A stretch of 64,000 nucleotides of DNA from an uncultured Gammaproteobacteria bacterium (GCA_964515005.1 CAZEVT010000001.1:125521-189520), one strand, 5' to 3'. Positions 5,578-63,919 are shown, counted from the stretch's first letter. Translations and numbers: made by a program. Notes: generated by a model not told the origin, from the sequence alone.

Positions 5578-6197
5578 ATGTTATTCCTATACTGCCATGC
5601 GTTAGGTAAGTATTTTCGTACCCACGTGTTTGCCTGTAAGAATCTTCTGTATGTCTTTTCCCGATCAAATATGGGCTGCATTTGGAGGACTTCGTGCGCG
5701 GTAAACACATCGCGCTCTTTTTGGGGAAGGGCAAGTGCTCCCTCGGTCATGAACATATTGAGGCACACTTTATCGGTGATATTCCTGTCCCCCGGCCTAC
5801 GGCGGAGGCCAAAAACATCCATAAGCAGCGTCGCCATGAGCCGAGTGACCCACAGCGTGCCTCCTGCAACCACGAAAAATAGATCAATGTCATCCTTGCG
5901 CCCAGCGTTATTCATCGCCAGTCCGCCGGTGACGCCAATGAGATTGATCGTTGGAATCCGCGAAAGGGCGGCTGCCGCCCGGCGCGCAATGATCCACTTC
6001 TTCTCCTGCCACGGAGCTTTTTTTTTCCAGATTTTTACCAGACGCTTTCGCCCGCGAAGCACAATATATCCATCGGTCACATCGATACCCGCAGTGAGCT
6101 TCGGACGGGAAGAAAAAAGCGACCAGAGATGAAATTCTTTGCGTGTTAAGGGATATTCAAAAATATCCGCATAGCATACAGTAGCCAGAGCGTTCAT
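5574..6197 (-). CDS. Pol-beta-like nucleotidyltransferase-fold protein
   Basis: GVTGGLAMNNAGRKDDIDLFFVV matches the G[SG]-x9-13-DxD signature of the nucleotidyltransferase superfamily. Confidence 0.5.
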   Translation of the reverse strand: MNALATVCYADIFEYPLTRKEFHLWSLFSSRPKLTAGIDVTDGYIVLRGRKRLVKIWKKKAPWQEKKWIIARRAAAALSRIPTINLIGVTGGLAMNNAGRKDDIDLFFVVAGGTLWVTRLMATLLMDVFGLRRRPGDRNITDKVCLNMFMTEGALALPQKERDVFTAHEVLQMQPIFDREKTYRRFLQANTWVRKYLPNAWQYRNNI

Positions 6198-11733: not shown

Positions 11734-11734
11734 G

Positions 11735-11806
11735 TGGGCCAGCTTGGTGACGATCCAAGTACCCCCAACTTATAAGGTTGGTGCTCTACCGATGAGCTAC
11801 TGGCCC
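11735..11806 (-). tRNA. tRNA-Ile with anticodon UAU (72 nt, no encoded CCA)
   Basis: Minus-strand cloverleaf: acceptor GGGCCAG/CTGGCCC, D-arm GCTC-ATCGGTA-GAGC, anticodon stem CCAAC/GTTGG, loop CTTATAA, T-arm CTTGG-ATCGTCA-CCAAG. The T-loop is non-canonical (A54, U58). Confidence 0.6.
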
Positions 11807-11835
11807 AGTGGATCGTATTATACCAAAGACGGGGG

Positions 11836-13224: not shown

Positions 13225-13278
13225 ATACGAGAATAACGCAATTGCGAAGATTGTAAAGGGGTTAAACGAAGAAATTTT

Positions 13279-15633: not shown

Positions 15634-15636
15634 AGC

Positions 15637-16008
15637 TTACACTTTCACCCTCAATACCTTCCCTCCAATCGCCTTAAGCCCCATGTGGAGCTGCTTGAGT
15701 CTTCTCATGCACCACGTCGCAAGCCACCGCCAGGAGCTGGCAATGCTTTGATTAAGCCCTGTTGCTATCTGATCATCGGTAAGAGGCAAAACAGTGCTTG
15801 TCGCAGGCATCGGGACATTTGCCCCAACCGGGGCGACTCCCATCTTGGCTACCGGCTGTGGCACCGGAATCGTCGTTGGGTGAATCGTCACGCCCGCCGA
15901 TGCGAGCTCTTTTGGAAGTGAATCTCCCTCGCCGCGCCCCGCCTCCGGGGCCGTGGTGGTCTCGGGGGCACTCGATGGGCCAGTGACTCTTTCGGGCAGA
16001 TCGCTCAT
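15637..16008 (-). CDS. Small Pro/Ala/Thr-rich hypothetical protein (123 aa)
   Basis: The ORF sits 3 nt upstream of the ATPase gene. It is low-complexity with a conserved-looking C-terminal segment SWRWLATWCMRRLKQLHMGL. Confidence 0.35.
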   Translation of the reverse strand: MSDLPERVTGPSSAPETTTAPEAGRGEGDSLPKELASAGVTIHPTTIPVPQPVAKMGVAPVGANVPMPATSTVLPLTDDQIATGLNQSIASSWRWLATWCMRRLKQLHMGLKAIGGKVLRVKV

Positions 16009-16020
16009 AGATTCATCATA

Positions 16021-20622: not shown

Positions 20623-20629
20623 AATATAG

Positions 20630-21076
20630 TTACAATAGCTTCTTTACTTCCTTTTCAAAATCTTCTACATCGACAAATCGTCTGAATACACTTGCAAATC
20701 GTATATAGGCAATCTTGTCCAGTTTCTTTAAGCGTTTGGCGACCAATTCTCCTATTTTTTGACTCGTCACCTCCGTCGTATCTCCGCCGATGAGCTCACG
20801 CTCCACCTCATCGACTATCCGGTCAATATCTACTGCTTTTATCCTCGTTTTGCCGCTTGCCCGCCAGATGCCTCTCGTCAATTTTTCCCGATCAAATGTT
20901 TCACGGCGGTCGTCTTTTTTGATCACGGTCAAGGGCACCGTTTCTAATCGCTCATACGTCGTAAACCGCTTCTCACACTTGCTGCAGGTGCGCCTGCGGC
21001 GCGTTACCGACAAATCTTCGCTGTCTCGGGTCTCAATAACATCGGTATTATCAAAATTACAATACGGACACTTCAT
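20630..21076 (-). CDS. nrdR: Transcriptional repressor NrdR (zinc ribbon plus ATP-cone)
   Basis: MKCPYCNFDNTDVIETRDSEDLSVTRRRRTCSKC. The start was chosen at the internal ATG that gives the MKCPYC N-terminus. The gene lies 8 nt upstream of nrdJ. Confidence 0.9.
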   Translation of the reverse strand: MKCPYCNFDNTDVIETRDSEDLSVTRRRRTCSKCEKRFTTYERLETVPLTVIKKDDRRETFDREKLTRGIWRASGKTRIKAVDIDRIVDEVERELIGGDTTEVTSQKIGELVAKRLKKLDKIAYIRFASVFRRFVDVEDFEKEVKKLL

Positions 21077-21844: not shown

Positions 21845-22368
21845 AGCCTTAGTATATCATCTAGACGTATTTTCGCAACATTGAACACTTCTTGTTCCAA
21901 CGCTTTAACTTTGGGATAACTTTCATCAAGAATCTTTTGGGCATCCGGCGGCAGGTGTTCTTCCTTCCATAAACGGAATCGCTCGTCGACCCCGACTATA
22001 TCATACTTGACCATCTTGTCGGCAAGGTACAAAAGCTTCTGTTCCCAGGTTTTGGGCGAAATCGCGGGGTCTAGGATTGCATGTAACGGATGGGTGACAA
22101 CAACATCGGCAATCTCTCCCATCCCTTCTTCCCTCAAAATCCGCACCGCGGTATCCGGATGCTTTTCACCGTCTAAACGCGGCACTGCTTTGTCAATGTC
22201 ATGGAGTAGTGCGGCAGCTTGTAACAACTCGGTGTTGATTGTTTCCTGCGTCAGTTTCGCAGCCAAAAACATCGCCACCCGCATCACCAACCCCACGTGT
22301 ACGCGCTTTTGTTCGGGTAACAGGTACTTCTCCCAAAGCTTTTTTGCTTGATCAACAGACGGAATCAT
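21841..22368 (-). CDS. HD-domain phosphohydrolase
   Basis: AALLHDIDKAV shows the HD motif and the helical HD fold. Confidence 0.7.
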   Translation of the reverse strand: MIPSVDQAKKLWEKYLLPEQKRVHVGLVMRVAMFLAAKLTQETINTELLQAAALLHDIDKAVPRLDGEKHPDTAVRILREEGMGEIADVVVTHPLHAILDPAISPKTWEQKLLYLADKMVKYDIVGVDERFRLWKEEHLPPDAQKILDESYPKVKALEQEVFNVAKIRLDDILRL

Positions 22369-22748
22369 AGAGATCGTGGATTTTGCACAACAATATCTTT
22401 CATTGGAAAATGACGAACATTAAGCGTGTAAAGAACCCCTTGATGTACTTTTGCTGTAGCCGCAATAATACAATCGAGCATGCTAAGACCAGATAGCTTG
22501 ACATGAAATTGATTCCAATAATATCCCGCTTCTCTTGCTATCTGTGCACTTACGGGAATAATTCGCTGATAGGTAATAAAATCTTCTGTCGAAGTAAGCT
22601 CTGAAGGGAAAATATTTTTATAAAGCTCTGCGATCGTAATCGTAGAAATAGCACTTTCATGTTTACTGACACCCTGCTTAAGGGCTTGAATGATGGCTGT
22701 GTCCCGCCGAAGAATCCAAATAGCGATATCGGTATCTAATACGTACAT
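22365..22748 (-). CDS. vapC: PIN-domain toxin (VapC-like)
   Basis: MYVLDTDIAIWILRRD places an acidic residue in the PIN position. It overlaps the upstream antitoxin gene. Confidence 0.7.
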   Translation of the reverse strand: MYVLDTDIAIWILRRDTAIIQALKQGVSKHESAISTITIAELYKNIFPSELTSTEDFITYQRIIPVSAQIAREAGYYWNQFHVKLSGLSMLDCIIAATAKVHQGVLYTLNVRHFPMKDIVVQNPRSL

Positions 22749-23026
22749 TAGAACTTCCTTTCATCCGCGAGTCTACTTTTGCGGAGCCATCGTTCCACGT
22801 TCTTTTTTGTCGCCCACTCGGGGTGATTTTTGGCGGTAAATGTGCCTGCCACTCGGTCCAGCATCGCGGTAAATGCTACAGGATCCCATTTCTTTTTTCC
22901 GACTATCTCTACTAAATCTTCATTCTCTTTCTCATCTCTCACCACGACATGGACGCCCGATTGTGCCTTCGCAAAGTAATCCGACATATTTTGCCGAAAC
23001 TGACTGATAGAAACCGTTATCGTCAT
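22748..23026 (-). CDS. Type II antitoxin (Phd/YefM-like N-terminus)
   Basis: MTITVSISQFRQNMSDYFAKAQSGVHVVV. It overlaps the PIN gene by 1 nt. Confidence 0.55.
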   Translation of the reverse strand: MTITVSISQFRQNMSDYFAKAQSGVHVVVRDEKENEDLVEIVGKKKWDPVAFTAMLDRVAGTFTAKNHPEWATKKNVERWLRKSRLADERKF

Positions 23027-38163: not shown

Positions 38164-38168
38164 CCACC

Positions 38169-38198
38169 AAAAACCCCGCCTCGGCGGGGTTTTTGTTT
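38169..38198. terminator. Bidirectional rho-independent terminator between uppP and the pilin gene
   Basis: aaaaaccccgcctcggcggggtttttg is a perfect GC hairpin flanked by A and T runs on both sides. Confidence 0.65.
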
Positions 38199-38216: not shown

Positions 38217-38702
38217 TTATCGGGTTACCGAAATAACCGCACTCAACTCTGCGGCTGGAGCGCTCACGGTCACTCGGTTATCGGTTGTGCTTCGCACGAC
38301 CGTGTAGTTTGTACTATACCCGGCGAGTGCCCCACAGTCGGTCACCGGCGTCCCGTTGTTGGTCAACGGATCCACAGGCAATGCGGCCAAGTAGGTCGTC
38401 ACCACTGCGGCGCAGATATTTACTTGTCCGTTTACGGTATCTGATCCGATGATTCCCGGTCCTGCGGTCGTAGCGGGAATACCAGCCGGAAGCTGTCCTT
38501 TATTGTCTGCTGCGTACTGGTCAATCGCGTTTAAGATCGCATTCACGTCGCTTGACCTCTTCGTGTTGTTGGCAGAAGCAAACTGCCGTGCGGGATTGAT
38601 GGCGATTAATGTAATTGCCAAGAGGACCGCCAAGATCCCGATGACAACGAGTAACTCAATGAGCGTAAAACCTCGACGCTCGGCGGGCAGTATATGTTTC
38701 AT
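38217..38702 (-). CDS. Type IV pilin (prepilin N-terminal methylation domain), probable major pilin
   Basis: GFTLIELLVVIGILAVLLAITLIAI follows a short leader. Confidence 0.8.
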   Translation of the reverse strand: MKHILPAERRGFTLIELLVVIGILAVLLAITLIAINPARQFASANNTKRSSDVNAILNAIDQYAADNKGQLPAGIPATTAGPGIIGSDTVNGQVNICAAVVTTYLAALPVDPLTNNGTPVTDCGALAGYSTNYTVVRSTTDNRVTVSAPAAELSAVISVTR

Positions 38703-38735
38703 ATGTATCTACCGTACCGTGGTGTCAGAGGTTTG

Positions 38736-39422
38736 TCAAGGGGCGGGCTGCGAGAATATAACAAAGACAAGAACAAGTAGTAATACTCCGAATATGCTCA
38801 CCATGATCATGAGGCGAGGATTACTTTTGGTTGTCGGAACATTTGAAGGCCCTTTCCCAGCCGGCACATTTTCCGTGGCGGTTTCTAAAACGCTTTGTTC
38901 TTTAAGCACCTCTATATGCTTTAACACATATCCGCCCATCTCCGCATCTAACCACCGTTTCGCCGCAAGACTGCCCAGCAGAAATGCCGGAATTGCCCCA
39001 ACAACATGCAACCCCTGCAAAAAAAAGGCATGCCGCAGGGCATCCATATATAATTTATTCATGGCTAACGCTCTTTTCCCGCTCTCTAGGGATATAATTT
39101 TGGTCGTCAGCTCTTCAAACGGCACCCGATCATAAAAAGCAAGTATTTCTGTTTCCCGCTGGCTATCCGTTGTTGCCGTAACCGGTGCCTCAAAATAGGT
39201 ATTTGCCGAAAGCACAAAAAAAAGATTTGCTCCGCCCAGATTGTTCTGCTGGAGCCATTGATTGACCAGCGTGTATAGTGCGTCCCGGTTCACCACATCT
39301 AAATCTTTGACGATCGTGACGGGAATTTCAAGAGCAAGTATCGCGGACAATCCGCCTCCAAAAAATTGAAGCCGGTTGCGGTCTACGTAGACGACGATCG
39401 TTGCTTTGGATTTTCCTAACAT
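38736..39422 (-). CDS. Pilus-locus hypothetical protein with C-terminal TM anchor
   Basis: ORF within the pilin gene string. C-terminal TM helix LMIMVSIFGVLLLVLVFVIF. Confidence 0.35.
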   Translation of the reverse strand: MLGKSKATIVVYVDRNRLQFFGGGLSAILALEIPVTIVKDLDVVNRDALYTLVNQWLQQNNLGGANLFFVLSANTYFEAPVTATTDSQRETEILAFYDRVPFEELTTKIISLESGKRALAMNKLYMDALRHAFFLQGLHVVGAIPAFLLGSLAAKRWLDAEMGGYVLKHIEVLKEQSVLETATENVPAGKGPSNVPTTKSNPRLMIMVSIFGVLLLVLVFVIFSQPAP

Positions 39423-39800
39423 CTAATATACCTCCTGCCAGGAATTGATAATGAGTTCGGTATTTTGAAAACGTGCAGAAACGGATGCCGTTCGGACAAA
39501 GTTTCCGGCCTCCCCACGGGAAACGACGATCATCGGATCCCCTCCTGTTATAGTAACTGTGGCACTCCCGCCATCGATAGTCAAGGTTTCCGTACCCCTG
39601 ACGGTCGGATCTCGGACGAGCCGTAAGAGTGCATTTTCAGCGCCGGACTCCGCAACACGCAGGGCCGATTCTCCTTGTTCTACTTGGCTAGCCGCCTGCG
39701 AATTGATAATGACAAGTGCAACTGCCATCGTCGTCATGATGATGGCAACGACCATAAAAACCAGAAGTACAACTAACGCTTGACCTTTGTTTTTTTTCAT
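39423..39800 (-). CDS. Pilin-like protein (non-canonical N-terminal hydrophobic helix)
   Basis: KGQALVVLLVFMVVAIIMTTMAVALVI is pilin-like but lacks a clear GFTLxE motif. Confidence 0.45.
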   Translation of the reverse strand: MKKNKGQALVVLLVFMVVAIIMTTMAVALVIINSQAASQVEQGESALRVAESGAENALLRLVRDPTVRGTETLTIDGGSATVTITGGDPMIVVSRGEAGNFVRTASVSARFQNTELIINSWQEVY

Positions 39801-40276
39801 CGTAGTGCTATCGTTGTTTCCAATGTTTTTGATGGTAATGGAGGAACCGTTTGCGTCGTGCTGTCGATGGTAAACTGCACATGAATGGAGTTTTTTTCAC
39901 CAGGATTGCCCAAACGGGTAAAGGTTAGATTTGAAATTGCCGACCCGAAGCTTGTGAGGTTGTGACTTCCCTCATTGTTCGCCAGTAAGAGCGAATTCTC
40001 GCTTATTGCATAGGTGTTGGCGACCCCTGCGATAGTAAGAACGAGTGTCGCAGCACTATCTCCCGGTGATGCCGGCGTGACGATATCCGAAGCTCTCCCA
40101 ATGTCATAGGCCAGACGGCCAAACACATACCTGCTGTCTTCTTCGACCTCGCCAACTGCGGTACTTGAAAGTTGCATATCCAAAATCCCCGTGAACATAC
40201 GCGTCAAAATCACCATCATAACAGTGAGGAGCCCCATATAGACAATCATTTCGACAATGGTAAATCCCTTTTTCAT
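39797..40276 (-). CDS. Prepilin-type minor pilin (pseudopilin)
   Basis: MKKGFTIVEMIVYMGLLTVMMVIL. Confidence 0.75.
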   Translation of the reverse strand: MKKGFTIVEMIVYMGLLTVMMVILTRMFTGILDMQLSSTAVGEVEEDSRYVFGRLAYDIGRASDIVTPASPGDSAATLVLTIAGVANTYAISENSLLLANNEGSHNLTSFGSAISNLTFTRLGNPGEKNSIHVQFTIDSTTQTVPPLPSKTLETTIALR

Positions 40277-40277
40277 A

Positions 40278-42224
40278 TCATGGGGAATAGTTCACTGTCA
40301 TATCTGTAAATATTGGTGCAGAAAATGCATCCGAAGTCACCAGAAACGCTTTATATCGGAAACATCGGGCCGGATTCTTATACCCTGACCCGCTTGAGAG
40401 CGGAATCGCAGCGCTTGTTGCAAATTTCGTCCCTCCGGTTCCATCAGGACCCACATAGGTAAACGCAGCACCCGCACAACTGCCGGCAACTGCATCTGCT
40501 CCGGAAACTTGATACGTAAGTGTTGTATTGGCAGGCAATATGCTGTTTGCAATAAACCGATTGAATGCCGCCGAATTCGTGGCGTCAAATGTGCGGGACT
40601 CAAACGTTCCGCTATTTGAATAAATCCCACCCGGCCCGCCCTGGATAATCTTAAGCTCTGCATTTGAATCTCCTGTGATAATATACGAAAACGTATCGCC
40701 ATCCGCTTCAATAACCGAAGAAATTCCATTGACCCCTGTTGAAATGGCCAGCCCACCGCTTCGGTTGTGGTTCGTACAATGGATGGGGATTGTTTCATCG
40801 GTTATATCGATCACGACATATTGCTGGCTGCCGCCTGTGCCGACAATGATTGCTTTATTTCCGGGTACGACCGTAACTGCTTTTGGACTCATCCCGTCTG
40901 TGGCATATGATCCTATGGATGAAAGCGTTCCTGATTTCGTCGTGGTGTTAATGACAAAAAACTCTGATTTACCGCTTGCATATACGGTGGACAAATACGC
41001 ACGGGTCCCCGTTGAATTTACCACGACGTCGGTTCCAGCCCCGGCCGTCAAATTTACGTTTGCGACCACCGTCGGGCTTGCGGAATTGGCTACATTTACA
41101 ATCTGCATTTGGGTCGCTGCCGAATCTATCGCTACATACGCGTATGTACCTACGACGACTGTTTTGATGCCGGTTCCGGCAAGCGTCGTTGTGCCAAGTT
41201 GTGGTCGAGAACCCGATTTGCTGGACAAATTAAATGTATAAAAGTTACTGCCGCTTGCCATGTAGCCGACATTCCCCGATACAAATATGCTGTCACCGTC
41301 GCCATTGCCTGGTGCGTTAAAATATCCCGCCTCCGAGTATGGATTGGTGACGAGATTGATAATTTCTATTTCTTTGGAATTGTTATCAGTCGCCAAATAG
41401 GCATAATTGGTTTCTCCAAAAACATCGTTTGTTTTATACCCATCGAACGTGCCAGATACCGTCGCATGGGGAGGATCGGCATTATCGACAAGGACCGTCG
41501 CATACGACACGCCGGACGAATTATCTCCGGTACCCGTAAACACTTTCCCTTCGATTGCGGAAACCGCATTTGCTACACCATTTTTGGGAAGATCCACGGC
41601 CGCAATAGTTAGGTTTGGTGCACACCAATCGCCTTTACCTCCCGCTCCCAACGTCACTTCGCCATCCCACGTGTCGGTCGTGATAACGTCGCTTTTGGTC
41701 CCCGCGTCAAAATCCGCCTGGGTTGTTTGCACCCACACATTACTCGTTAAACGGGTCAGATAAAAGGCTGACGTGACCGCGGAGGCAATAGGAGTCCCCC
41801 AGGAAACCGCGACCGTCACGTGTTTCGTAGACGGATCCAACGAACCACCCGACTCCACAATAACACCGCTTGCGTCCCGTAATACATCCGCAATCACAAT
41901 CGACCTGGTATATCCCTGTATTGATTCGGTCCCCGACACCAGGGACCATGTTGACCCCGCCACGACGGGGTGATATGTTCCAGTAGTCGCAACATTCGAC
42001 CAGCCTGCCGCGCGTACCACCCGTATGGCCTCTCCGGCCTCGCGGGCAAGGGCCGTTGCCTCAAGCCGCTGCCTTTGCTGTGCCTGCCCCTGACGGGATG
42101 CAACAAAACCCGCCGTGATGCCGGGAATAAGAATGGCGCTCACGCCGAGGGCGACCAACAGCTCGATCAGGAGCTGACCCTTTTGAAATCTTAATTTTTT
42201 ACTCAACCGATATAACAGCGCCAT
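40278..42224 (-). CDS. Large prepilin-like protein (648 aa), candidate pilus tip/adhesin subunit
   Basis: The N-terminus is KGQLLIELLVALGVSAILIPG. It is followed by a ~600 aa Ser/Thr/Gly-rich beta-rich domain. Confidence 0.65.
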   Translation of the reverse strand: MALLYRLSKKLRFQKGQLLIELLVALGVSAILIPGITAGFVASRQGQAQQRQRLEATALAREAGEAIRVVRAAGWSNVATTGTYHPVVAGSTWSLVSGTESIQGYTRSIVIADVLRDASGVIVESGGSLDPSTKHVTVAVSWGTPIASAVTSAFYLTRLTSNVWVQTTQADFDAGTKSDVITTDTWDGEVTLGAGGKGDWCAPNLTIAAVDLPKNGVANAVSAIEGKVFTGTGDNSSGVSYATVLVDNADPPHATVSGTFDGYKTNDVFGETNYAYLATDNNSKEIEIINLVTNPYSEAGYFNAPGNGDGDSIFVSGNVGYMASGSNFYTFNLSSKSGSRPQLGTTTLAGTGIKTVVVGTYAYVAIDSAATQMQIVNVANSASPTVVANVNLTAGAGTDVVVNSTGTRAYLSTVYASGKSEFFVINTTTKSGTLSSIGSYATDGMSPKAVTVVPGNKAIIVGTGGSQQYVVIDITDETIPIHCTNHNRSGGLAISTGVNGISSVIEADGDTFSYIITGDSNAELKIIQGGPGGIYSNSGTFESRTFDATNSAAFNRFIANSILPANTTLTYQVSGADAVAGSCAGAAFTYVGPDGTGGTKFATSAAIPLSSGSGYKNPARCFRYKAFLVTSDAFSAPIFTDMTVNYSP

Positions 42225-42687
42225 AGCGATTGATGGTAATAACTTTAGACTCGTTGGTAAGGGTCTGCGTCAGGGTAACCGAGTTTGCGGCATCGGAGAA
42301 TCCCACGACGTCTCCGCTTCCTTTGTCAAATATGATGGACGCGCCAGGAAGATCAATGACGCTAAAGGTGATATTCGTAGGAAGCGGGAATGCTGCGTTT
42401 GTCGGATCTGCCCCGTTAAAACTTGTCCCTTTAAAAAGGACATACTGATTTGTTTGGAAATTGATACCAAATGCCTGTGCCGTCGTCTCACCCTGGGTAT
42501 ACCCGGACATCGCTTTGGTCTGCGCCCCACGCATATCAGCCAACACCGTCGTTACTGTTGCGCTCAATGGAGCTCGCCGTTCAATACTGGTTGCCCGAAC
42601 AATGCTCAACGCCAGAAGAGTCGTCATAATTCCCATGACAACGAGTACTTCTATGAATGTAAAACCTTGCTTTTGCATGGTAATCAA
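42199..42687 (-). CDS. Prepilin-type minor pilin
   Basis: QGFTFIEVLVVMGIMTTLLALSIV. Confidence 0.75.
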   Translation of the reverse strand: MITMQKQGFTFIEVLVVMGIMTTLLALSIVRATSIERRAPLSATVTTVLADMRGAQTKAMSGYTQGETTAQAFGINFQTNQYVLFKGTSFNGADPTNAAFPLPTNITFSVIDLPGASIIFDKGSGDVVGFSDAANSVTLTQTLTNESKVITINRYGAVISVE

Positions 42688-43739
42688 CGTCTTGCCCCCA
42701 CCTGACTGATGAGTCCATAGACCGGCGCGATAATCGCAAGCATCATTCCTCCGACGACCACCCCGACTGCCACGAGTAGTATAGGTTCCAAAAGCGAAGT
42801 AAGTGTTTTGAGGGTGTTGGTCACCTCATAATCAAAATATTCCGATATATCCTGCATGGATTTATCGAGCGTCCCGGTTTTTTCCCCGGCTTCCATAAGT
42901 TTGATCATAAGGGGCGGAATATATCCTTTTGACGCACGAAACCCTTCGGACAACTTCTTACCCGCAAATACCATATCACGCGAGGTCTTAATGATTTCCG
43001 CAGTTTTTTTTCGGATAACCACATCGGAGGTAAGCTCGAGCGCGGACGTTATGGAAAGGCCGGAAGAAAGGAGTAGATGCAAACTACGGGAAAATCTTGT
43101 AATGTCAATTTGTATAATCAGATTCGACACGATAGGCAGGGAATAAAAAAGATCAAGAAACACGGCCCGCTTATTCCGATACATGATAATCGCCAGAGCG
43201 ACAAAAAGAAACAGTCCTAAAAGAAAAAGTGCCGTGTTTTTCACAAGGAGATTAGAAAGAAAAATAAGAATTTGTGTCGGGAGAGGAAGATCAACCCGAA
43301 GCCTCTCAAATACCGTCGAAATTTTCGGCACAACAACCACCAGAATCATAAGCAGTACTCCAAAAAACACCACGACGATAAAAAGGGGGTACACCATTGC
43401 TGAACGCACTTTATCCCCAAATTCAATTTCTTTTTGAATGGTCACTTTGAGGTCCCGAAGCGTCACGTCGAGCGTCCCTGCTTCCTCCGATGCTTTGATG
43501 ACGGAAACCGTCACCTTATCAAACACCCGGGGAAATTTCGACAACGTCACATACACGTGTTTCCCCTGAATAAGATCCTCATGGAGCGTCTCGAGAATTT
43601 TCTTTTGTCCACCCTTGGCATCCTCAAGAAGGGAGTTGATAACATCCAGTATGGGAATGCCGGCGGTAAGCATGGTCGCCAGGCTCCCGATAAACGCTAT
43701 TTTTTCACTATTTTTGAGTTTTATATTTTGGTCCGTCAT
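42684..43739 (-). CDS. pilC: Type IV pilus inner-membrane platform protein PilC (GspF family)
   Basis: Duplicated GspF-like helical domains with three TM segments. It overlaps pilB by 4 nt. Confidence 0.88.
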   Translation of the reverse strand: MTDQNIKLKNSEKIAFIGSLATMLTAGIPILDVINSLLEDAKGGQKKILETLHEDLIQGKHVYVTLSKFPRVFDKVTVSVIKASEEAGTLDVTLRDLKVTIQKEIEFGDKVRSAMVYPLFIVVVFFGVLLMILVVVVPKISTVFERLRVDLPLPTQILIFLSNLLVKNTALFLLGLFLFVALAIIMYRNKRAVFLDLFYSLPIVSNLIIQIDITRFSRSLHLLLSSGLSITSALELTSDVVIRKKTAEIIKTSRDMVFAGKKLSEGFRASKGYIPPLMIKLMEAGEKTGTLDKSMQDISEYFDYEVTNTLKTLTSLLEPILLVAVGVVVGGMMLAIIAPVYGLISQVGARR

Positions 43740-45439
43740 AAGGATTCCACTTTAGTGACGCGGATAACTTCATCTATGGTCGTGAGACCCCGTCTGACCT
43801 TATCCAGCCCATCATCAAGCATCGTCGTCATCCCCTCGTCAATCGCCGATTTATTGATCGCATCCGAATCATTCTTTTCCGTTACTCTCCGCCGGATCTC
43901 CTTTGAAACTTCCAGCACTTCAAACACCCCGAGGCGGCCCGAATAGCCGGTAGTATGACAAATCTTACAGCCCTTTCCTTTATAAAGGGTCAACGCTGGT
44001 TCATCGCCGAAATGTTTTTTGATTACCTCCGCCGGCAAATGTCTGGCGAGCTCTTCCTGGGTGACCGTCTGTGTCGTTTTACACATGTCGCAGATTTTAC
44101 GCACCAGACGCTGGGCGATGATGATGTTGACGGTGGAGGCCACCAAAAACGGTTCGACTTTCATGTCCGAGAGTCTGGGAATAGCTGTTGCCGCATCGTT
44201 GGTGTGAAGGGTCGAAAGTACTAAGTGACCGGTGAGGGCGGCGTTGACCGCGATCCCCGCCGTCTCACTGTCGCGAATCTCGCCGACGAAGATGATATTG
44301 GGGTCCTGGCGGAGAATTGACCGCAGCCCGTTGGCAAATGTGAGGTTGGTCTTCGGGTTGACCTGTACCTGATTGGCTCCCTTGATGCGGTACTCGACCG
44401 GATCTTCCACCGTCGTGATGTTTTTTTCACGCGTGTTGAGGATTTTCAATATGGAATAAATCGACGTTGTTTTCCCCGACCCAGTCGGGCCGGTCGAGAG
44501 AATCATGCCGTATGATTTGTTGTATGCAGCCGTCACTTTTTGCAAATCTTTTTCACTCATGCCCAAATCCGTCAGTGTAATCTCCCGACTCCGCGAAGAC
44601 AAAAGACGAAGGACTGCTTTTTCTCCCTCGACGATCGGGATAATGGACACACGGATATCCAGATTTTCCTCTTCAAGGGCAAGGCGCATCTTGCCGTCCT
44701 GCGCGCTCATGTGTTCATCGGTGCGAAGTCCGGAGAGTACTTTGATGCGCGTCATGATGCGGTCATGGAGCACTTTGGGAACCCGAAGCACCTCGTGAAG
44801 GACGCCGTCGATACGGAAACGGATGAGGGAATTGTGTTCTTCCGGTTCGATATGGATATCGGACGCCTTATCCTGATAGGCCGCGTCTATAAGGACGTCG
44901 ACGATTTTGGCAATCGGCAAATCATCATAGACTGCGGCAGTTGCTTTTTTAATATCTTCTTTCAAAAGCTCGTCGATCGTTTTTTGAAGGACTTTTTTGT
45001 AAACCTGCAGCGTATTTTCAATATCCCGGTCCGTTGCATAGTGGACAAATACCCGTGCATTTGTTTTTTTGGCAACCATCTCGACAATCGCGTTGTTGGC
45101 TGGATCCGATAAGGCCATCTTGACCCCGTTTTGATCGCGGGCAAATGCAATAGCTTTCTGCTTTTTGGCTGTTTTTTCCGGAATGATATGAAATACGTCC
45201 TCCGGAATCGTAAACGTGGAAAGAGCGACAAACGGTACGTTTAAAGACTGGGCAACAAGCGCACCTATTTGCTCATCAGTCAGTACCCCTTTTTCCACTA
45301 AGGCCGCAGACAACGGAACGTTAGCGGTTTCGGCAAATTTTATGGCTTCGGATAGTTTGGCCGGGTCACCGGTGCCACTCTTAGTCACGAGCGCCGCTAG
45401 CTCCTTGTTGGACAGGATCATAGATCTATCATACAACAA
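43736..45439 (-). CDS. pilB: Type IV pilus assembly ATPase PilB (GspE family)
   Basis: Walker A LSTGPTGSGKTTSIY, a CxxC tetracysteine region (CDMCKT...CKIC), and Asp and His boxes. Confidence 0.92.
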   Translation of the reverse strand: MLYDRSMILSNKELAALVTKSGTGDPAKLSEAIKFAETANVPLSAALVEKGVLTDEQIGALVAQSLNVPFVALSTFTIPEDVFHIIPEKTAKKQKAIAFARDQNGVKMALSDPANNAIVEMVAKKTNARVFVHYATDRDIENTLQVYKKVLQKTIDELLKEDIKKATAAVYDDLPIAKIVDVLIDAAYQDKASDIHIEPEEHNSLIRFRIDGVLHEVLRVPKVLHDRIMTRIKVLSGLRTDEHMSAQDGKMRLALEEENLDIRVSIIPIVEGEKAVLRLLSSRSREITLTDLGMSEKDLQKVTAAYNKSYGMILSTGPTGSGKTTSIYSILKILNTREKNITTVEDPVEYRIKGANQVQVNPKTNLTFANGLRSILRQDPNIIFVGEIRDSETAGIAVNAALTGHLVLSTLHTNDAATAIPRLSDMKVEPFLVASTVNIIIAQRLVRKICDMCKTTQTVTQEELARHLPAEVIKKHFGDEPALTLYKGKGCKICHTTGYSGRLGVFEVLEVSKEIRRRVTEKNDSDAINKSAIDEGMTTMLDDGLDKVRRGLTTIDEVIRVTKVESL

Positions 45440-45448
45440 TAACAGGGT

Positions 45449-47272
45449 TTATTTCGATGCTCTGGCGGAGCGGGTGCGGTCGGTTTTGGTGAGGAATTTT
45501 TTGCGAAGACGCAGATTCTCCGGTGTTATTTCCAGAAGCTCATCATCCTCGATAAAATCTAAGGCCTGCTCCAGGCTCATCACGACGGGCGGATCCAATT
45601 GAATTGCAATATCGGCATTCGCACTGTGAATATTGGTCAGTTTTTTGGTTTTACAGACGTTGATATCAATATCTTCAGACCGGTTATTGACCCCGACGAT
45701 CATACCCTCGTAGACGGGAATCCCCGGACCGATAAATGCTTTTCCCCGATCCTGCACGGTAGTCAGGGCATAGCCCGATGACTTCCCCGACTCAATAGAA
45801 ACGAGGACGCCGTTTCGCAGCTTTGCAATACGGGGAGCCACCGGAAAATATCCGATGATGCGGGGCGCGAATATGCCGTTCCCGCGGGTTTTGGTGAGAA
45901 TATCACCGCGGAACCCCAGGAGGTTTCGGCTGGAAACTTTGTAGACCATGCGGGTGACCCCCCGCGTGTTGGTGTGGGTATCAAGCATAACCGCGCGTCT
46001 CCGACCCAGCTCCTCGGAAATCACGCCAACATACGCATTGTCGATTTCAATCGTCATTTCTTCAAACGGCTCGTTCGTTTTCCCATCAATTTCTTTCAGA
46101 ATCACTTCGGGTTTACCGACTTGAAATTCATACCCTTCGCGCCGCAGGTTCTCAAAGAGAATGGCCAGGTGCAACTCTCCCCGGCCGGCGACGATAAATC
46201 CGGTGCCATCGGGATTTTCGGTAATCCGAAGGCCGATATTGGTCTTTTTTTCCTTGACGAGTCGCTGGTAAATCTGGCGCGCGGTCGAAAATTTGCCTTC
46301 CCGTCCGGCAAACGGAGAACTATTGGGGGCAACAAGGATTTTTAAGGTCGGCTCCTCGACGTGAATTGCTGGAAATCCTGTGGGATCAGACGGGTCAGTC
46401 AGCGTCTGACCTATCCCTACATCAGGAATCCCGGTGATGGCGACTATGTCCCCGGTTTCTCCCATCGGCGCGGCCACACGCTTAAGTCCGACACTCGTAA
46501 ATACCTCAAGCACCGTAAATGCTCCGAGTTTTTCGCCCTCGAGCATTTGAAATACTTTCTGACCGGGTACAACCTTCCCCTGGGCAATTTTCCCAATGGC
46601 AAATGACCCTTTGTGGGTGTCAAAATCCAGAGTAGACACAAGCATTTTAAACGGCTTGGTGGAGTCTATAACGGGAGCAGGAATATATTTTACAATTGCG
46701 TCAAAAAGCGGCGTCAGATCTTCCGGCGCATCCATATCCGTGGGGTAGGTGGCCCACGCTTTTCCTTCGCGACCGACCGCATAGAGAACCGGAAAATCCA
46801 AATGTCCCTCGTGATGAGCCATGTGGAGGATAAGCTCTTCTGTTTCACGAAGTACTTCCGCGGCTCGCGCGTCTTTGCGGTCAATTTTGTTGATAACGAC
46901 GATAATCTTCAGGTTATGCTCCAGCGTTTTTTGTAGGACAAACTGCGTTTGTGGGAGCGGCCCTTCAGCGGCATCAACAACAAGAAGCACACCGTCTGCC
47001 ATGTTGATGACGCGCTCCACTTCACCCGAAAAGTCCGCGTGTCCGGGGGTATCGATGATGTTTATTTTGGTATCGTGATACTGGACTGCCGTGTTTTTGG
47101 CGAGAATCGTAATCCCTTTTTCCCGCTCGAGGGCATTGCTGTCGAGGATCGTCGTCTGAGTCATTTCCGCTTGATTATCCCGAAACGTATGGGTCTGCTT
47201 GAGCATCCCGTCTACAAGGGTAGTTTTCCCATGATCCACATGAGCAATAATAGCTACATTTCGAATATCCAT
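45449..47272 (-). CDS. typA: Translational GTPase TypA/BipA
   Basis: [32 protein letters not shown]. The start was trimmed to an internal ATG. Confidence 0.92.
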
Positions 47273-47343
47273 AGAAATAGAAAAACCCGCGTCCAGCGGG
47301 TGTCCGTTTGGGCAGAACAAGGCTATTATACACTATATAGGCT

Positions 47344-47724
47344 CTAAAATGCTCGCTGAAGTTTTTTATCAAAAGTTTTGAATTCTTTTGCTCCTTTTGT
47401 TTTTGCATACACCAAATTGTATGCATCTTCTAGATCAAAAGAACCTTCTTGATATATCAAACCTGCTTTCTGCAACATAGATCGTTCTTCTATATCCAGA
47501 AACTGCATATTGAGAATCTGCAGAAGCAACGTAGCAATGTCCTTTTTGTCTTTTTTATAAAAACTTGTCAACACCCAATAAAGCTCAAAAATAACGACCG
47601 TTGACGTAAATAATTTCTTTTTACCGGTTGCGCCACTCCGAAACAACGATTTAGCCTTCTCGTACTGATCAACAACATCTGCGCGAAGGAATCGAAGAAA
47701 ATAATTCGTATCAACAAAAATCAT
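47344..47724 (-). CDS. vapC: PIN-domain toxin (VapC-like)
   Basis: MIFVDTNYFLRFL. It overlaps the upstream antitoxin gene by 4 nt. Confidence 0.7.
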   Translation of the reverse strand: MIFVDTNYFLRFLRADVVDQYEKAKSLFRSGATGKKKLFTSTVVIFELYWVLTSFYKKDKKDIATLLLQILNMQFLDIEERSMLQKAGLIYQEGSFDLEDAYNLVYAKTKGAKEFKTFDKKLQRAF

Positions 47725-47975
47725 GATTTCTTTTTCTTGAAATACTCATGCTTTGCTATTTTAATGATTTCATCTTCTGATTTTCCTCTATACCTCTTGG
47801 GAACTCTGAGCGATCCTGCCAGAGATTCAACTAAAGATATAGCCGGCTCAATGATAAGTTGATTTCCTATAGCACGAACAAGTACTTTTTTTGTGGTTTG
47901 TAAGCCGAGCTGTTCAAATAGTAAAGCCGGAATAGTCAATTGCCGTTTGCTCGTAATCGTTGCTATCTGTTGCAT
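47721..47975 (-). CDS. vapB: AbrB/MazE-type (SpoVT-AbrB fold) antitoxin
   Basis: KRQLTIPALLFEQLGLQ...LIIEP is a swapped-hairpin motif. Confidence 0.6.
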   Translation of the reverse strand: MQQIATITSKRQLTIPALLFEQLGLQTTKKVLVRAIGNQLIIEPAISLVESLAGSLRVPKRYRGKSEDEIIKIAKHEYFKKKKS

Positions 47976-48024: not shown

Positions 48025-48564
48025 TTGACTATGGTATACTATACAATTATGGAAACGGCAACTATCGCCGGTGGGTGTTTTTGGTGTACCGAAGCTGTAT
48101 TTAAACGCCTGAAAGGTGTTATGTCAGTCATACCAGGATATGCCGGCGGCTCTATACCTAATCCGACGTATAAGCAGGTTTGCGACGGCAATACCGGGCA
48201 CGCCGAGGCAATTCAAATATCTTTCGATCCCGCAAAAATCTCGTTTGAAAAACTTCTCCAAATATTTTTTCACCTCCACGACCCCACCACGATGAACCGC
48301 CAAGGGAACGACGTCGGGCCGCAGTACCGATCGGCAATTTTTTACCATGACGAGGCACAAAAAGTAACCGCCGAAAAAATAAAAAAGGAAATTGAGGGCG
48401 CAGTAACAGAAATCACACTGTACACCAACTTCTACCCGGCCGAAGACTACCACCGCGACTACTACGCCAAAAATAGCTATCAGCCATATTGCCAGTACGT
48501 CATCGATCCGAAAATTCAGAAACTCACGCGCGAATTTGCCACCGACCTCAAACCCAGAATTTAA
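48025..48564 (+). CDS. msrA: Peptide methionine-S-sulfoxide reductase MsrA
   Basis: Active site [15 protein letters not shown]. Confidence 0.92.
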
Positions 48565-49433
48565 TGGTAGCGGACGACGAGTTGCGGGGTATTGCCGGTT
48601 CCGGTATTGTTGTCTGCCGATTCAAAGTATGCGAAGTCTCCGGTCACGTCTCCGCCAGTAGCTTCCGTGGTCAGATGGATACGATACTGCGAGCGGCTCC
48701 GTGAGTTGGTTCGATCATTTCGAAGTGCATCCGTCACATCAATCTCTTTCCACGCCACCGAAGCGCTTGAACTTAGGGTCGCAAAACTTGACGATATGGC
48801 GGCCACCGCATAATCGCTGTTGTCGAGCGAATCTCCGTATTCGAGATGATCAACTTTTATACTCCCCCCGCCAGCCCCATACGGATCGCCGATCACGCTT
48901 GTCTGGTAGAGGCGAAGAGTTACCTGATCAATCGTCACGCCAGAGGGAAGGCTCCCCAGGTCAAAACTCGCAAATCCGCGGGTGACTAACGTTGCGTTCC
49001 GCCCCGCGCGAATCTCAAGCGCATTATTTCCGCCGCCGTTATTGGCCCGGAATCCGTCAATGGCAGCTGAAGAGTTCAGCGTTGTTGTCTGACTTGCAGG
49101 AGTCGGAGTGGGAGTGGGCGTTTTCGTAGGCGTGGGAGTGGGCGTTTTCGTTGGAGTTGGTTTTAAAGTCGACTTGGGCGTAGCTGTTGGACTGGTTGCC
49201 GGCTCGGGAGTCGGCGTCGGGGCCTCGGTTGGCGTGGGAGTAGGTTCAGCCGCGCCTTGTCTACCATACTTGTACGCGGCACCTGCCGCACCCAAAGAAA
49301 GAAGCACAACAGTACCCAAAATCACCCACTTCAAGGGAAATTTTTTCTTTGGGCCAGAGGGGGCAATCGGTGGGGCAGAAGTGTCTTGTCCTTCCATTCG
49401 CCACATCGTAGATGATCCCAGAACAAAAGTCAA
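48561..49433 (-). CDS. Membrane-anchored surface protein with Thr/Pro-rich linker
   Basis: N-terminal TM helix. Linker [48 protein letters not shown]. Beta-rich C-terminal domain. Confidence 0.45.
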
Positions 49434-49870
49434 ATCCAGCGGCGGATCCGTTTGCGGTATTTTTGATAGGAGTCGCCAAACGTCTTCGTCAACATACCTT
49501 CTTCAAAAGGGATAACGAGCGTCTGTATGAAGAAGAAAAACATGACTGGCCCGACAAACGCAAGCACATTGGCAAACACCATTGCCGTTCCCGTGGCAAC
49601 CAAAAGAAAGCCCAGATAGATGGGATTGCGGCTCACGCGATACGGGCCGGTGGTGATAAGGGCGGAAGGCTTGCCGCGGGGGTGAAGGGTCGTTTTGTGT
49701 TTCTGAAAAAACTGTACCGTCCAGACAAAAAGTGCGATGCCAGCGACTATGAGTAGCATACCGGCTTTCGGCAAAAAATCCGCGGCGAGGTGCAGTCCGG
49801 GAGAAATTGTGCTTGCCAAAAACGAAACTATGATGGCGCCGACAAGAAGTATTGGCGGTGGAATAAACAT
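49430..49870 (-). CDS. Isoprenylcysteine carboxyl methyltransferase (ICMT/PEMT) family membrane methyltransferase
   Basis: [21 protein letters not shown] and the C-terminal EE...FG..Y..Y motif. Confidence 0.7.
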
Positions 49871-49940
49871 AGCTACTTCATCATATACCGCCCGCAGAAA
49901 AATAGAAACACGGGAAGTGTGGTACAGTACGCGTGATCAT

Positions 49941-50699
49941 ATGAGGCACCTCTCTACTATAGTGCTCATCGCACTTTTTCTTCTGTCTCCGCTTTTGCCC
50001 ACCCCAACAGTATTTGCCGCAGTCGTCATCAACGAAATATATCCCAAGCCAAGCCAGGAAGACACGGAATGGATAGAACTGTACAACAACGGACCCGCAT
50101 CCGTATCGCTCGACCGATGGAAACTCCAAAATACATCGGGCACAGTCACGACGTATATGATGAACGCAAGCTTCAACATTGCAGGGAACAGTTTTTTGAC
50201 CTTCCCCAAATCCCAAACCGGTATCAGCTTGAATAACGAGGGGGACGCAGTAAAGTTGATTGACGAGAATAATAATCAGGTAGACAATCAGGGCTATCCC
50301 AGTGTTCTTGGCTACAATACCTCCGTCGGACGAACGGTTGATGGAGGAGGCACGTGGGCCCTCTGCATAACACCGGCAACACCAAATACCGCGAATCATT
50401 GTCCCCAGCCGTCTCCGACGGCGACCCCCATGCCAACGGCGACCCCCATGCCAACCGCAACACCCCTGCCCACGGCCACTCCTACCCCAACGCAAACATT
50501 CGCTGCATTTGTACCCACCTCTCCTCCGGTTGCTACCACAGAGATCCTAGGGGTGACTATCCAACCCACGCAAGCGCCAATTGAATCATTTGATGTTTTG
50601 ACGTTTAAGGTAAGTAAAATTCTCCTGTTACAGATCCTTCTGGTAATTATAGGATGGGGAAGTATTGCGCTTGTCGCCTATATACGGCGCAGGCGCTAA
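49941..50699 (+). CDS. Lamin-tail-domain (LTD) surface protein with PT-rich linker and C-terminal TM anchor
   Basis: VVINEIYPKPSQEDTEWIELYNNG is the LTD signature. Linker PTATPMPTATPMPTATPLPTATPTPT. C-terminal TM helix. The start was trimmed to an internal ATG. Confidence 0.6.
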   Translation: MRHLSTIVLIALFLLSPLLPTPTVFAAVVINEIYPKPSQEDTEWIELYNNGPASVSLDRWKLQNTSGTVTTYMMNASFNIAGNSFLTFPKSQTGISLNNEGDAVKLIDENNNQVDNQGYPSVLGYNTSVGRTVDGGGTWALCITPATPNTANHCPQPSPTATPMPTATPMPTATPLPTATPTPTQTFAAFVPTSPPVATTEILGVTIQPTQAPIESFDVLTFKVSKILLLQILLVIIGWGSIALVAYIRRRR

Positions 50700-61190: not shown

Positions 61191-61571
61191 TTATACCGCA
61201 AAACGAAGCTTTGGGATGCCTTGGTAGTGTTTTTTATTGCGTGTGGCCATCTTGGCTCCGATGGAAACGCTGGTAGCACCGACAATCAAATCAGCAAGGG
61301 CTGCGTCAGTGGTATGATCCCGCTTTGTCTGACCTGCAAATTCTGCAAGCTCAGTTCCGAGGGGAATAACAATAAAACCCTCAATAAGTTCCTTTAGTTT
61401 GCCAACAACCGCTTTTGACGACTTTCCGGCAAATAATTCAAGCACAGTCACTGCGGAAAGATATAATTCAACTTTGCCGTCCCGCTGGGCTTCAACAAGC
61501 TTCACTAACCCGCCACCGCCGGTTCGCAAGTAGTCGATGATAACATCACTATCAATAAGTACTTTCGTCAT
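61191..61571 (-). CDS. vapC: PIN-domain toxin (VapC-like)
   Basis: MTKVLIDSDVIIDYL. It overlaps the upstream antitoxin gene by 4 nt. Confidence 0.7.
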   Translation of the reverse strand: MTKVLIDSDVIIDYLRTGGGGLVKLVEAQRDGKVELYLSAVTVLELFAGKSSKAVVGKLKELIEGFIVIPLGTELAEFAGQTKRDHTTDAALADLIVGATSVSIGAKMATRNKKHYQGIPKLRFAV

Positions 61572-61834
61572 GAAAATATTGGCCGGCGCCAATAACGTTT
61601 TTCCCGGACTGTGCGGGTCCAGGCCGCTTCATTCTTCAAGACCCCCTTCAAACCCGGAAGCACGTGGGTAAGAATATAGTCTGCCTTGCCGGCCGCATCA
61701 TATCTCACCGGCACAATCTTCACGATCCGTTTCCCTTCTTTTTCCACTTCAATAATATCGCCTGTTTTGGCGACCCGCTCCATAATGGCAAATATATCTT
61801 TTCTCAACGCCGTGATTGGGAGAATATAGTTCAT
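61568..61834 (-). CDS. Type II antitoxin (Phd/YefM-like)
   Basis: MNYILPITALRKDIFAIMERVAKTGDIIEV. The start is ambiguous (ATG at 61832-61834 or at 61850-61852), and both lie inside the palindrome. Confidence 0.55.
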   Translation of the reverse strand: MNYILPITALRKDIFAIMERVAKTGDIIEVEKEGKRIVKIVPVRYDAAGKADYILTHVLPGLKGVLKNEAAWTRTVREKRYWRRPIFS

Positions 61835-61855
61835 ATGTACACTAGTGTACATATG
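61832..61855. promoter_or_regulatory. 24-bp perfect palindrome CATATGTACACTAGTGTACATATG at the antitoxin 5' end (candidate autoregulatory operator)
   Basis: Self-complementary by inspection. It shares the ATATGTACA half-site with the 23043-23060 palindrome. Confidence 0.5.
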
Positions 61856-63250: not shown

Positions 63251-63919
63251 TCATCTTGCCATCGTCATGGCCCAAACGCGCTTGGCCCCTGCGTGTTTCA
63301 ATACGCTGGCCGCAGCACGCATGGTCGCGCCAGTTGTAAATACGTCATCGAAAAGAACTACCGTTGTTTTTGTATATCGTTTTTCCGCTGTTTTATTTAT
63401 CCCAAATACGCCCTCCATATTTTTCAAACGTTGTTTGCGGTCTTTCATTTCTACTTGCGGCACCGTTTCCTTGACGCGCTTGAGGATATCAGTTTGCACA
63501 GCGATGTTCAAACGCTTGGCAAGAAGTTTACCCAATACTTCTGCCTGATTAAAGCCGCGCTGGCGAAATCGAGAAGAGTGAAGAGGTATAGGAACCAAAA
63601 TGCCATCGCCAACGTTCTCCGGTGTAATAAGGGTAATAAATTCTTGAGCTAAATCCGAAACTAACCGGTATTTGATGGCCTTCACGGCCTTCCGAACCGG
63701 ACCGTTGTAATGGAAAAAGCTCGTGAGTCCGTCGATGCAATATCGCGTCCGGCACCGCGGGTGGGTTACCCCGTCAAGCGCCGGCCTTCCACACATCGGA
63801 CAAATCTGTTCATTGGGTAAAATCGGACGAATGAGTAGCCGGCACCGATCGCAAAAATACTTCCCTATTTTTCCACAATTAACACAGCGTTTGGGGAAAA
63901 CGAGATCAAGAAGGTTCAT
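63251..63919 (-). CDS. comFC: ComF family protein (ComFC-like, zinc finger plus PRTase domain)
   Basis: N-terminal zinc finger CVNCGK...CDRC...CPMCG...HPRC. C-terminal PRTase motif VVLFDDVFTTGATM. Confidence 0.8.
   Translation of the reverse strand: MNLLDLVFPKRCVNCGKIGKYFCDRCRLLIRPILPNEQICPMCGRPALDGVTHPRCRTRYCIDGLTSFFHYNGPVRKAVKAIKYRLVSDLAQEFITLITPENVGDGILVPIPLHSSRFRQRGFNQAEVLGKLLAKRLNIAVQTDILKRVKETVPQVEMKDRKQRLKNMEGVFGINKTAEKRYTKTTVVLFDDVFTTGATMRAAASVLKHAGAKRVWAMTMAR

Follow-up and report, generated by a model that had tools for sequence, protein, structure and literature searches.

Type IV pili (T4P) are thought to be central to host finding, host holding and DNA acquisition in the ultrasmall bacteria of the Candidate Phyla Radiation (CPR), and they have been dissected only in Saccharibacteria. 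A locus at positions 38217-47272 of a 64,000-nucleotide (nt) stretch of DNA, deposited for an uncultured Gammaproteobacteria bacterium (GCA_964515005.1, CAZEVT010000001.1:125521-189520; the whole stretch is called the window here), raises the question of which filament can be built from an ATPase, a platform protein, five pilin-like proteins and one tail-anchored protein, without a secretin. The locus is genuine: it is a type IV pilus operon, strongly conserved, that belongs to an ultrasmall, Gottesmanbacteria-like CPR bacterium. Its nearest relatives are metagenome-assembled genomes of Candidatus Gottesmanbacteria. We consider it probable that a single operon here equips a monoderm CPR bacterium (Gottesmanbacteria/Microgenomates) with a compact, secretin-less type IV filament, of which a protein of 228 amino acids (aa) is the GspL/PilM-like part.

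A conserved pilus operon

The window was scanned for protein families with the hidden Markov models (HMMs) of Pfam and NCBIfam, the Pfam scan covering ~50 open reading frames (ORFs). Nine ORFs were found on the minus strand, in the order from typA to the major pilin gene given by an initial annotation made from the sequence alone. They are listed below with the two hairpins that flank them. In the leaders, the slash marks the predicted cleavage site.

45449..47272 (ORF 45449-47320), minus: typA/bipA, translational GTPase (TIGR01394)
43736..45439, minus: pilB, PilB/GspE-type extension ATPase with N-terminal MshEN domain (PF00437, PF05157)
42684..43739, minus: pilC, PilC/GspF-type platform protein, 351 aa, two T2SSF repeats (PF00482)
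42199..42687, minus: minor-type prepilin, 162 aa, G8/FTFIE (N_methyl)
40278..42224, minus: modular prepilin, 648 aa, G16/QLLIE, with C-terminal propeller and beta-sandwich (sequence and model)
39797..40276, minus: minor-type prepilin, 159 aa, G4/FTIVE (N_methyl just under the cut-off)
39423..39800, minus: pilin-like protein, 125 aa, G6/QALVV, lacking Glu5 (sequence; weak PilX_N)
38736..39422, minus: tail-anchored protein, 228 aa, GspL/PilM-like by its model fold
38217..38702, minus: major pilin, 161 aa, G11/FTLIE (N_methyl, GspG)
38168..38195: bidirectional intrinsic-terminator hairpin, 12-bp stem flanked on either side by T/A runs, located between the major pilin gene and the convergent uppP/bacA
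47285..47301, minus: hairpin and U-tract directly upstream of the typA ATG

The nine ORFs are genes and not chance ORFs, because each has many homologues and the same gene order recurs in related loci. The order pilB-pilC-162-648-159-125-228-161 (pilus proteins after PilC named by length) was the same in every related locus with a complete cassette, among them the complete chromosome OY969569.1 (L008, 995 kb) and the distant loci L011-L014. These loci come from Gottesmanbacteria and other Patescibacteria. The order was kept even where the 228 aa homologue is only ~30% identical, and the 228 aa gene lay within the pilin block in every related locus. Conservation against the distant locus L012, in bits per residue, was 1.47 for PilB, 1.21 for PilC, 1.21 for the 648 aa pilin and 1.20 for the major pilin, ~0.63-0.65 for the small minor pilins, and 0.48 for the 228 aa protein.

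The core of a type IV filament (T4F) is present: class III pilins, an ATPase of the PilB/GspE family and a platform protein of the PilC/GspF family. The description as a secretin-less, monoderm/CPR-style locus with five pilin-like genes is supported. At the sequence level, none of the ~50 window ORFs encoded PilD, PilT, PilM/N/O/P, PilQ or a secretin, as had been claimed, and GspC, GspD and GspM had no match among them either. A second T2SSE ATPase was found neither in the window nor within 10 kb in any related locus (phmmer with PilB). A prepilin peptidase (Peptidase_A24) was likewise absent, both from the window ORFs and from the genes called in related loci within 10 kb.

Gene packing was less uniform than the 4-nt overlaps first described for all junctions, which instead span -26 to +33 nt. 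An overlap of 4 nt occurs at three junctions (pilB/pilC, pilC/162 and 159/125). The 162 and 648 aa genes overlap by 26 nt, identically in L002, L007 and L012. The remaining distances are +9 nt for typA/pilB (+27 nt if pilB starts at a possible alternative ATG at 45421), +1 for 648/159, 0 for 125/228 and +33 nt for 228/161. The co-directional unit is flanked by hairpins, at 38168-38195 towards uppP and at 47285-47301 before the typA ATG. The latter marks the upstream edge of the unit, and could be either the terminator of the upstream vapC-like gene or a typA leader element or attenuator.

ATPase, platform protein and small pilins

The family scores of the machinery lean towards type IVa pili (T4aP) and type II secretion systems (T2SS), and not towards the Com pilus. 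PilB matched PF00437 (T2SSE, 424.9 bits) and PF05157 (MshEN, 47.6 bits), and its translation shows a CxxC...CxxC (tetracysteine) motif. Among the NCBIfam models it scored 533 bits with PilB (TIGR02538) and 518 with GspE, both under their equivalog cut-offs, versus 250 with ComGA (cut-off 300). PilC matched PF00482 in two stretches (151.8 bits) and scored 223 with GspF, 191 with PilC and 141 with ComGB (cut-off 240), all under their cut-offs. GspG was the top NCBIfam match of the 161 aa major pilin (36 bits, residues 10-114), and the ComGC model gave 25 bits versus a cut-off of 75. Since every equivalog cut-off was missed by the pilus machinery proteins, the system fits no named T4F class cleanly.

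Residues ~42-66 of PilB (PLSAALVEKGVLTDEQIGALVAQS) resemble the 24-residue MshEN motif that binds cyclic di-GMP (c-di-GMP), without its leading Arg and Gly; the NCBIfam model of the c-di-GMP motif gave 13 bits versus a cut-off of 38. MshEN was also considered as the GspL-binding N1E domain of GspE. This was dropped, as a control scan of E. coli GspE places N1E in PF22341.

Class III leaders with Gly at -1 and Glu at +5 were read from the sequence of four of the prepilins (162, 648, 159 and 161 aa), and the leader positions are invariant in orthologues. N_methyl scores were 32.3 bits for the major pilin, 25.2 for the 162 aa prepilin and 20.3, versus a cut-off of 21.2, for the 159 aa prepilin. 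The major pilin has two Cys in its C-terminal half, and it reached 182 bits in the distant locus L012. The 162 aa prepilin had weak N-terminal matches to ComGD and GspH, and only its N-terminal 27 residues aligned with E. coli GspH in hhalign. The profile of the 159 aa prepilin found only pilin N-terminal helices in the PDB; its position is kept in all loci. The 125 aa protein matched PilX_N weakly (14 bits, E 0.05), and its G6, Q7 and missing Glu5 are kept in 8 orthologues, making it a candidate capping subunit of the GspK/PilX type. Assignment of the 162, 159 and 125 aa pilins to GspH/I/J/K, PilV/W/X or ComGD-G was attempted by profile comparison with the PDB and by hhalign. Only the N-terminal helix matched, and no orthology is therefore claimed for the minor pilins.

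In the distant relative L013, a 577 aa DsbD_TM-thioredoxin/AhpC fusion gene (11750-13483) directly follows the major pilin gene. It would be compatible with a dedicated disulfide system for Cys-containing pilins.

A pilin that carries a propeller

Structure prediction gave confident models for both the 648 and the 228 aa protein, with a propeller in the first and a GspL/PilM-like fold in the second. The model of the 648 aa pilin (mean predicted local distance difference test, pLDDT, 85.8) bears out the proposal of a prepilin helix followed by a large beta-rich domain, which the sequence also supports. It consists of a leader cleaved after G16, with Glu at +5, an alpha1 helix (17-73), a pilin beta-sheet (~82-166), a 7-bladed beta-propeller (~200-530) and a C-terminal beta-sandwich (538-647). 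By this model the propeller is of the generic WD40/LVIVD 7-bladed type. The window protein itself scored 15.7 bits with PF08309 (LVIVD), versus a cut-off of 20.2, and the orthologues P0091 and P0120 reached 33-37 bits. Many orthologues carry a precomputed PF08309 match, orthologues also match N_methyl, and some relatives are ~1,020 aa long.

Gly16 and Glu21 are invariant in the family, as are four Cys, two of which flank the propeller (201 and 483) and two of which lie in the sandwich (583 and 621). This pattern is compatible with a processed, exported and disulfide-bonded subunit. Display of the propeller on the pilus is probable, and the protein fits the modular pilin concept (Pelicic 2023, PMC10191384). 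More than 1,000 homologues were found, with 55-78% identity among the matches listed; the named ones belong to Gottesman-, Levy- and Amesbacteria.

A role of the 648 aa pilin as a tip adhesin for host attachment, proposed in the initial annotation, remains a plausible proposal. It resembles neither PilY1, for which there was no sequence match and none among the top 60 structural matches, nor a ComGC-type protein, as its ComG-family matches were weak, sub-threshold and confined to the N-terminal helix. Against the distant locus L012, its score per residue equals that of PilC, an unusual level for an adhesin. This very high conservation argues against a host-specific receptor. The propeller is acidic, with a net charge of -12 and a mean of -14 over 30 orthologues, and a role as DNA receptor is disfavoured on this ground.

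A tail-anchored protein with a GspL/PilM-like fold

The AlphaFold2 model of the 228 aa protein, computed from a close alignment (A1), had a pLDDT of 82.3 and a predicted template modelling score (pTM) of 0.70. In it, an alpha/beta domain (8-175) is joined by a disordered linker (182-201) to a transmembrane helix (202-224), behind which only ~4 residues remain. The cytoplasmic domain of GspL (GspL-cyto) and PilM were the top matches in two independent structure comparisons, and Foldseek against 350,542 chains gave E values of 1.8e-6 to 5e-4 at probability 1.0, with TMq (the TM-score for the query) of 0.38-0.44. The model thus suggests a truncated actin-like fold of the GspL/PilM/FtsA branch on a single C-terminal anchor, and the predicted protein combines the GspL-cyto fold with one transmembrane segment, an arrangement that GspL shares apart from its periplasmic domain. 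Our preferred reading is that it belongs to the GspL/PilM class as a cryptic, truncated member, or is at least structurally equivalent to that class.

The initial annotation had described this protein as lacking PilM/N/O similarity. That holds for the sequence, in which no HMM revealed a PilN or PilO, but not for the fold. Its further suggestion of a lineage-specific assembly factor is not supported, as the fold comparisons place GspL-cyto and PilM first.

Close homologues numbered 54, and a profile search of 1.84 billion cluster representatives gave 1,207 at E<=1e-3. Those with a name are annotated as 'hypothetical' or 'LytR C-terminal domain-containing protein', and no record turned up in an exact search for the window product. 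The part behind the transmembrane helix varies. Of the best 151 representatives, 74 stop within 12 residues of the helix and so have a bare anchor, 24 continue into tails of 41-100 residues rich in Pro, Ser and Thr, and in 41 a domain longer than 100 aa follows. This domain was LytR_C in the 6 long forms checked, at or just under the Pfam cut-off, and the long form occupies the same operon position. The longer relatives carry LytR_C or Pro/Thr-rich tails in place of GspL_C. The constant part is the cytoplasmic domain with its transmembrane helix, an indication that the protein works in the cytoplasm and is oriented N-in/C-out. Across the family, only P101, F96/F102 and P145 are conserved, and ATP binding is therefore unlikely.

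Proposed assembly and comparison with known systems

A prepilin peptidase encoded elsewhere would cleave the five leaders after the conserved Gly. The four minor pilins would form a priming and tip complex, which the Glu5-less 125 aa subunit may cap as GspK or PilX does, and in which the 648 aa subunit would present a ligand-binding module, the disulfide-stabilised acidic propeller together with the beta-sandwich, at the pilus tip or close to it. PilB, acting on PilC, would polymerise the 161 aa major pilin beneath this complex. The 228 aa protein would take the role of PilM-PilN or GspL and hold the ATPase/platform complex at the membrane. As it has no extracytoplasmic domain, the PilMNO/GspLM sub-complex would be reduced to one tail-anchored protein. 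Any retraction would require a PilT encoded elsewhere. Attachment to other cells or surfaces is the most likely use, and DNA capture is possible.

The cassette is simpler than the T4P loci described for CPR bacteria, which hold PilB, PilT, PilC, PilM (with a 'GspL domain'), PilN, PilO and PilD (PMC6744442); the closed Microgenomates genome Ch65 has the same set (PMC7143001). The loci T4P-1 and T4P-2 of the saccharibacterium TM7x (PMC12206443) share with it PilB and PilC, a major and several minor pilins, the lack of a secretin and a CPR host. They differ in having separate PilM, PilN and PilO, and in locus 1 also PilT and PilD, whereas here there is one tail-anchored protein and neither PilT nor PilD nearby. 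Host binding by TM7x requires the minor pilin PilX2, which has a C-terminal 7-bladed RCC1 propeller (PMC12206443). Likewise, the 648 aa protein combines a minor pilin with a C-terminal 7-bladed propeller. PilX2 is of the RCC1 type and lacks a canonical PilD site, whereas the 648 aa pilin is LVIVD/WD40-like and highly conserved, with invariant Gly-1 and Glu+5. We found no paper on the tail-anchored protein or the LVIVD pilin of the cassette, and CPR goes unmentioned in the T4F classification of Denise et al. 2019.

The resemblance to the T2SS extends to the tetracysteine ATPase, the GspF-like platform, a cytoplasmic domain of GspL fold with one transmembrane segment, a GspG-like major subunit, four minor subunits of which one lacks Glu5, and the absence of a retraction ATPase from the locus. 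In contrast to the T2SS, the host is monoderm and the locus is without GspD, GspC and GspM. The 228 aa protein lacks GspL_C, has a cytoplasmic part ~60 residues shorter than that of GspL and fails the T2SSL HMM; PilB has MshEN and not GSPE_N1E; and one minor pilin carries a propeller/sandwich module of 450 residues. A large beta-rich module tied to the minor-pilin tip complex is known from the PilY1/PilC tip adhesins of diderm T4aP, where in PilY1 it is a propeller, and from Thermus ComZ, where it is a beta-solenoid. PilY1 is a non-pilin that docks on minor pilins, whereas the propeller here is covalently within a pilin.

Several points weigh against a GspL/PilM-like compact filament as we propose it, and most concern the 228 aa protein. 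It matched no Pfam or NCBIfam family, its profiles from the close (A1) and a broad (A3) alignment found nothing among PDB sequences, and hhalign gave probabilities below 1% against E. coli GspL (0.1%) and HofM, though both alignments end at the same 'hydrophobic strand-P' motif (HVVGAIPA, NVTRVLPD, HVSAITPD). The TM-scores are modest, the domain is smaller than GspL-cyto, and no phosphate-binding motif is conserved in the family; convergence on a half-actin fold is possible. Contact with PilB is suggested by analogy with GspL-GspE and PilM-PilB, and PilB has MshEN where GspE has its N1E domain. As to the pilins, the high conservation of the 648 aa subunit is atypical of adhesins, its tip location and ligand binding are what we infer, and neither profile nor hhalign comparison placed the minor pilins in the H/I/J/K classes. 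Finally, PilD was not found within the window.

Alternative explanations

A bolder version of the proposal is possible, though we hold it only tentatively. The cassette may represent a distinct, ancient type IV filament subtype of CPR bacteria (Microgenomates), in which PilMNO/GspLM was reduced to a tail-anchored half-actin protein and a PilY1-like propeller was fused into a core minor pilin. Equally tentatively, such a subtype might be a missing link between the Com pilus and T4aP/T2SS, the optional LytR_C ectodomain might touch the cell wall, and the conservation of the propeller pilin might mean that it recognises a universal ligand on the cells of partners, for instance peptidoglycan or some widespread glycan.

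A competence pilus of the Com type is unlikely. Under this reading, the filament would either not retract or do so spontaneously, and it would supply a nucleotide-auxotrophic CPR cell with environmental DNA, taken up through ComEC. Its appeal lies in the eight-component make-up shared with the Com pilus (ComGA-ComGG) of Firmicutes, namely a single operon, an ATPase, a platform, one major and four minor pilins, no PilT, PilN or PilO, and a monoderm host (Pelicic 2023, PMC10191384), and in the link between CPR T4P and DNA uptake (PMC6744442). A ComFC-like, competence-associated gene (63251-63919, minus; double zinc ribbon and phosphoribosyltransferase domain) lies ~16 kb from the operon, and a universal ligand such as DNA would suit the high conservation of the propeller pilin. 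However, the ComGA, ComGB and ComGC models score well below those of PilB/GspE, GspF and GspG and below their own cut-offs. PilB carries an N-terminal MshEN domain, which ComGA lacks, and the Com pilus has neither a GspL/PilM-like protein nor a giant modular pilin. The major pilin gene is last in the operon, whereas in com operons ComGC directly follows ComGB. The acidic propeller speaks against electrostatic DNA binding, and the propeller-pilin pilus of TM7x, T4P-2, is reported to contribute to host binding and not to competence (PMC12206443).

Less likely still, the 228 aa protein could be a lineage-specific factor unrelated to PilM/GspL, for instance a regulator or pilin chaperone, its half-actin likeness being convergent or a modelling artefact. 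No library or profile comparison gave a sequence signal, few positions are conserved across the wider family, and the TM-scores are ~0.4, all of which would agree with such a factor. The Pfam control argues otherwise: PF05134 (T2SSL) did not match the 228 aa protein and gave 283 bits for E. coli GspL, but only 18 bits for HofM, a genuine PilM-like protein, so a missing HMM match says little against relatedness. The topology, a cytoplasmic domain with one transmembrane segment and an optional ectodomain, is that of GspL, and in no related locus does the gene leave the pilin block.

A T2SS-like endopilus that pushes folded proteins or other cargo through a monoderm cell wall like a piston, without a secretin, is very improbable: the top matches (GspF for PilC, GspG for the major pilin, GspL-cyto for the 228 aa fold, and GspE in a near tie with PilB), four minor pilins with one lacking Glu5 as in GspH-K, and the lack of a retraction ATPase in the window or within 10 kb in any related locus would suit it, but GspC, GspD and GspM are missing among the window ORFs, all equivalog scores are below cut-off, the major pilin has the two-Cys C-terminal region typical of T4aP pilins and not the Ca-site typical of GspG, the 648 aa propeller pilin looks like a displayed module and not a piston tip, and pili on CPR cells are shown in the literature.

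Neighbouring genes

The TypA product matched TIGR01394 at 785.8 bits (cut-off 757). Its start is most likely the ATG at 47272, because the match begins at residue 19 of the ORF. The co-directional adjacency of typA to the pilus genes, pointed out initially, is real, and it is restricted to close relatives: typA adjoins pilB only in Gottesmanbacteria loci, lies downstream in L012 and is not beside the cassette in L013 and L014. A functional partnership with the pilus was rejected, as the linkage is lost in these more distant loci. We regard typA as an upstream neighbour outside the pilus machinery, which may be co-transcribed with it. In L001, a JGI (Joint Genome Institute) contig copy of the locus, typA is split into two overlapping ORFs of 193 and 398 aa (4906-6776), whereas the window has one intact ORF of 623 aa; the two copies differ either by a frameshift or through an assembly error. 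A perfect TATAAT lies ~50 nt upstream of the typA ATG, followed by the GC-rich hairpin ACCCGC-TGGAC-GCGGGT and a U-tract (47285-47330, minus). A promoter scan gave fewer sites than in shuffled sequence, and therefore no promoter is claimed.

The other window genes encode two class A penicillin-binding proteins, a VirD4-like ATPase, toxin-antitoxin pairs and surface proteins with Pro/Thr-rich linkers; none of the remaining window genes pointed to an outer-membrane system. Directly upstream of the operon neighbourhood (48561-50699), two surface proteins are predicted, a CBM96-like protein of 290 aa and a lamin-tail-domain (LTD) protein of 320 aa, both with long linkers rich in Pro and Thr. An LTD protein is also found upstream of the cassette in L002. 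Three small gene pairs look like VapBC-type toxin-antitoxin systems. PIN and MazE/AbrB-like domains were recorded for the pair at 47344-47975, and the pairs at 22365-23026 and 61191-61852 were judged from their sequence. The VirD4/TrwB-type coupling-protein-like ATPase (784 aa; TrwB_AAD_bind, TraG-D_C, T4SS-DNA_transf) is encoded in 13279-17547 (minus) and adjoins ORFs of 123 and 508 aa, both without a family match. A similar DUF87/TrwB-like gene (781 aa, 18630-20975) is located near the pilus cassette in L014. ARAGORN predicts a tRNA-Ile with anticodon TAT at 11734-11806 (minus). In most bacteria AUA is decoded by a lysidine-modified CAU tRNA, and a UAU tRNA-Ile is uncommon.

Implications

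The operon indicates that the large sister group Microgenomates uses a simpler pilus machine. It gives a probable role, as a minimal GspL/PilM-like membrane tether, to a family of ~1,200 clusters that are unnamed or named after LytR_C. The cassette would be a natural minimal intermediate between the Com pilus, with ATPase and platform only, and T4aP/T2SS, with PilMNO or GspLM, and it bears on the actual purpose of the alignment sub-complex. The very conserved propeller pilin is a concrete target for binding studies, antibodies and host-range prediction. If the cassette is indeed a distinct filament subtype, this pilin would be the primary attachment device of a large uncultured clade.

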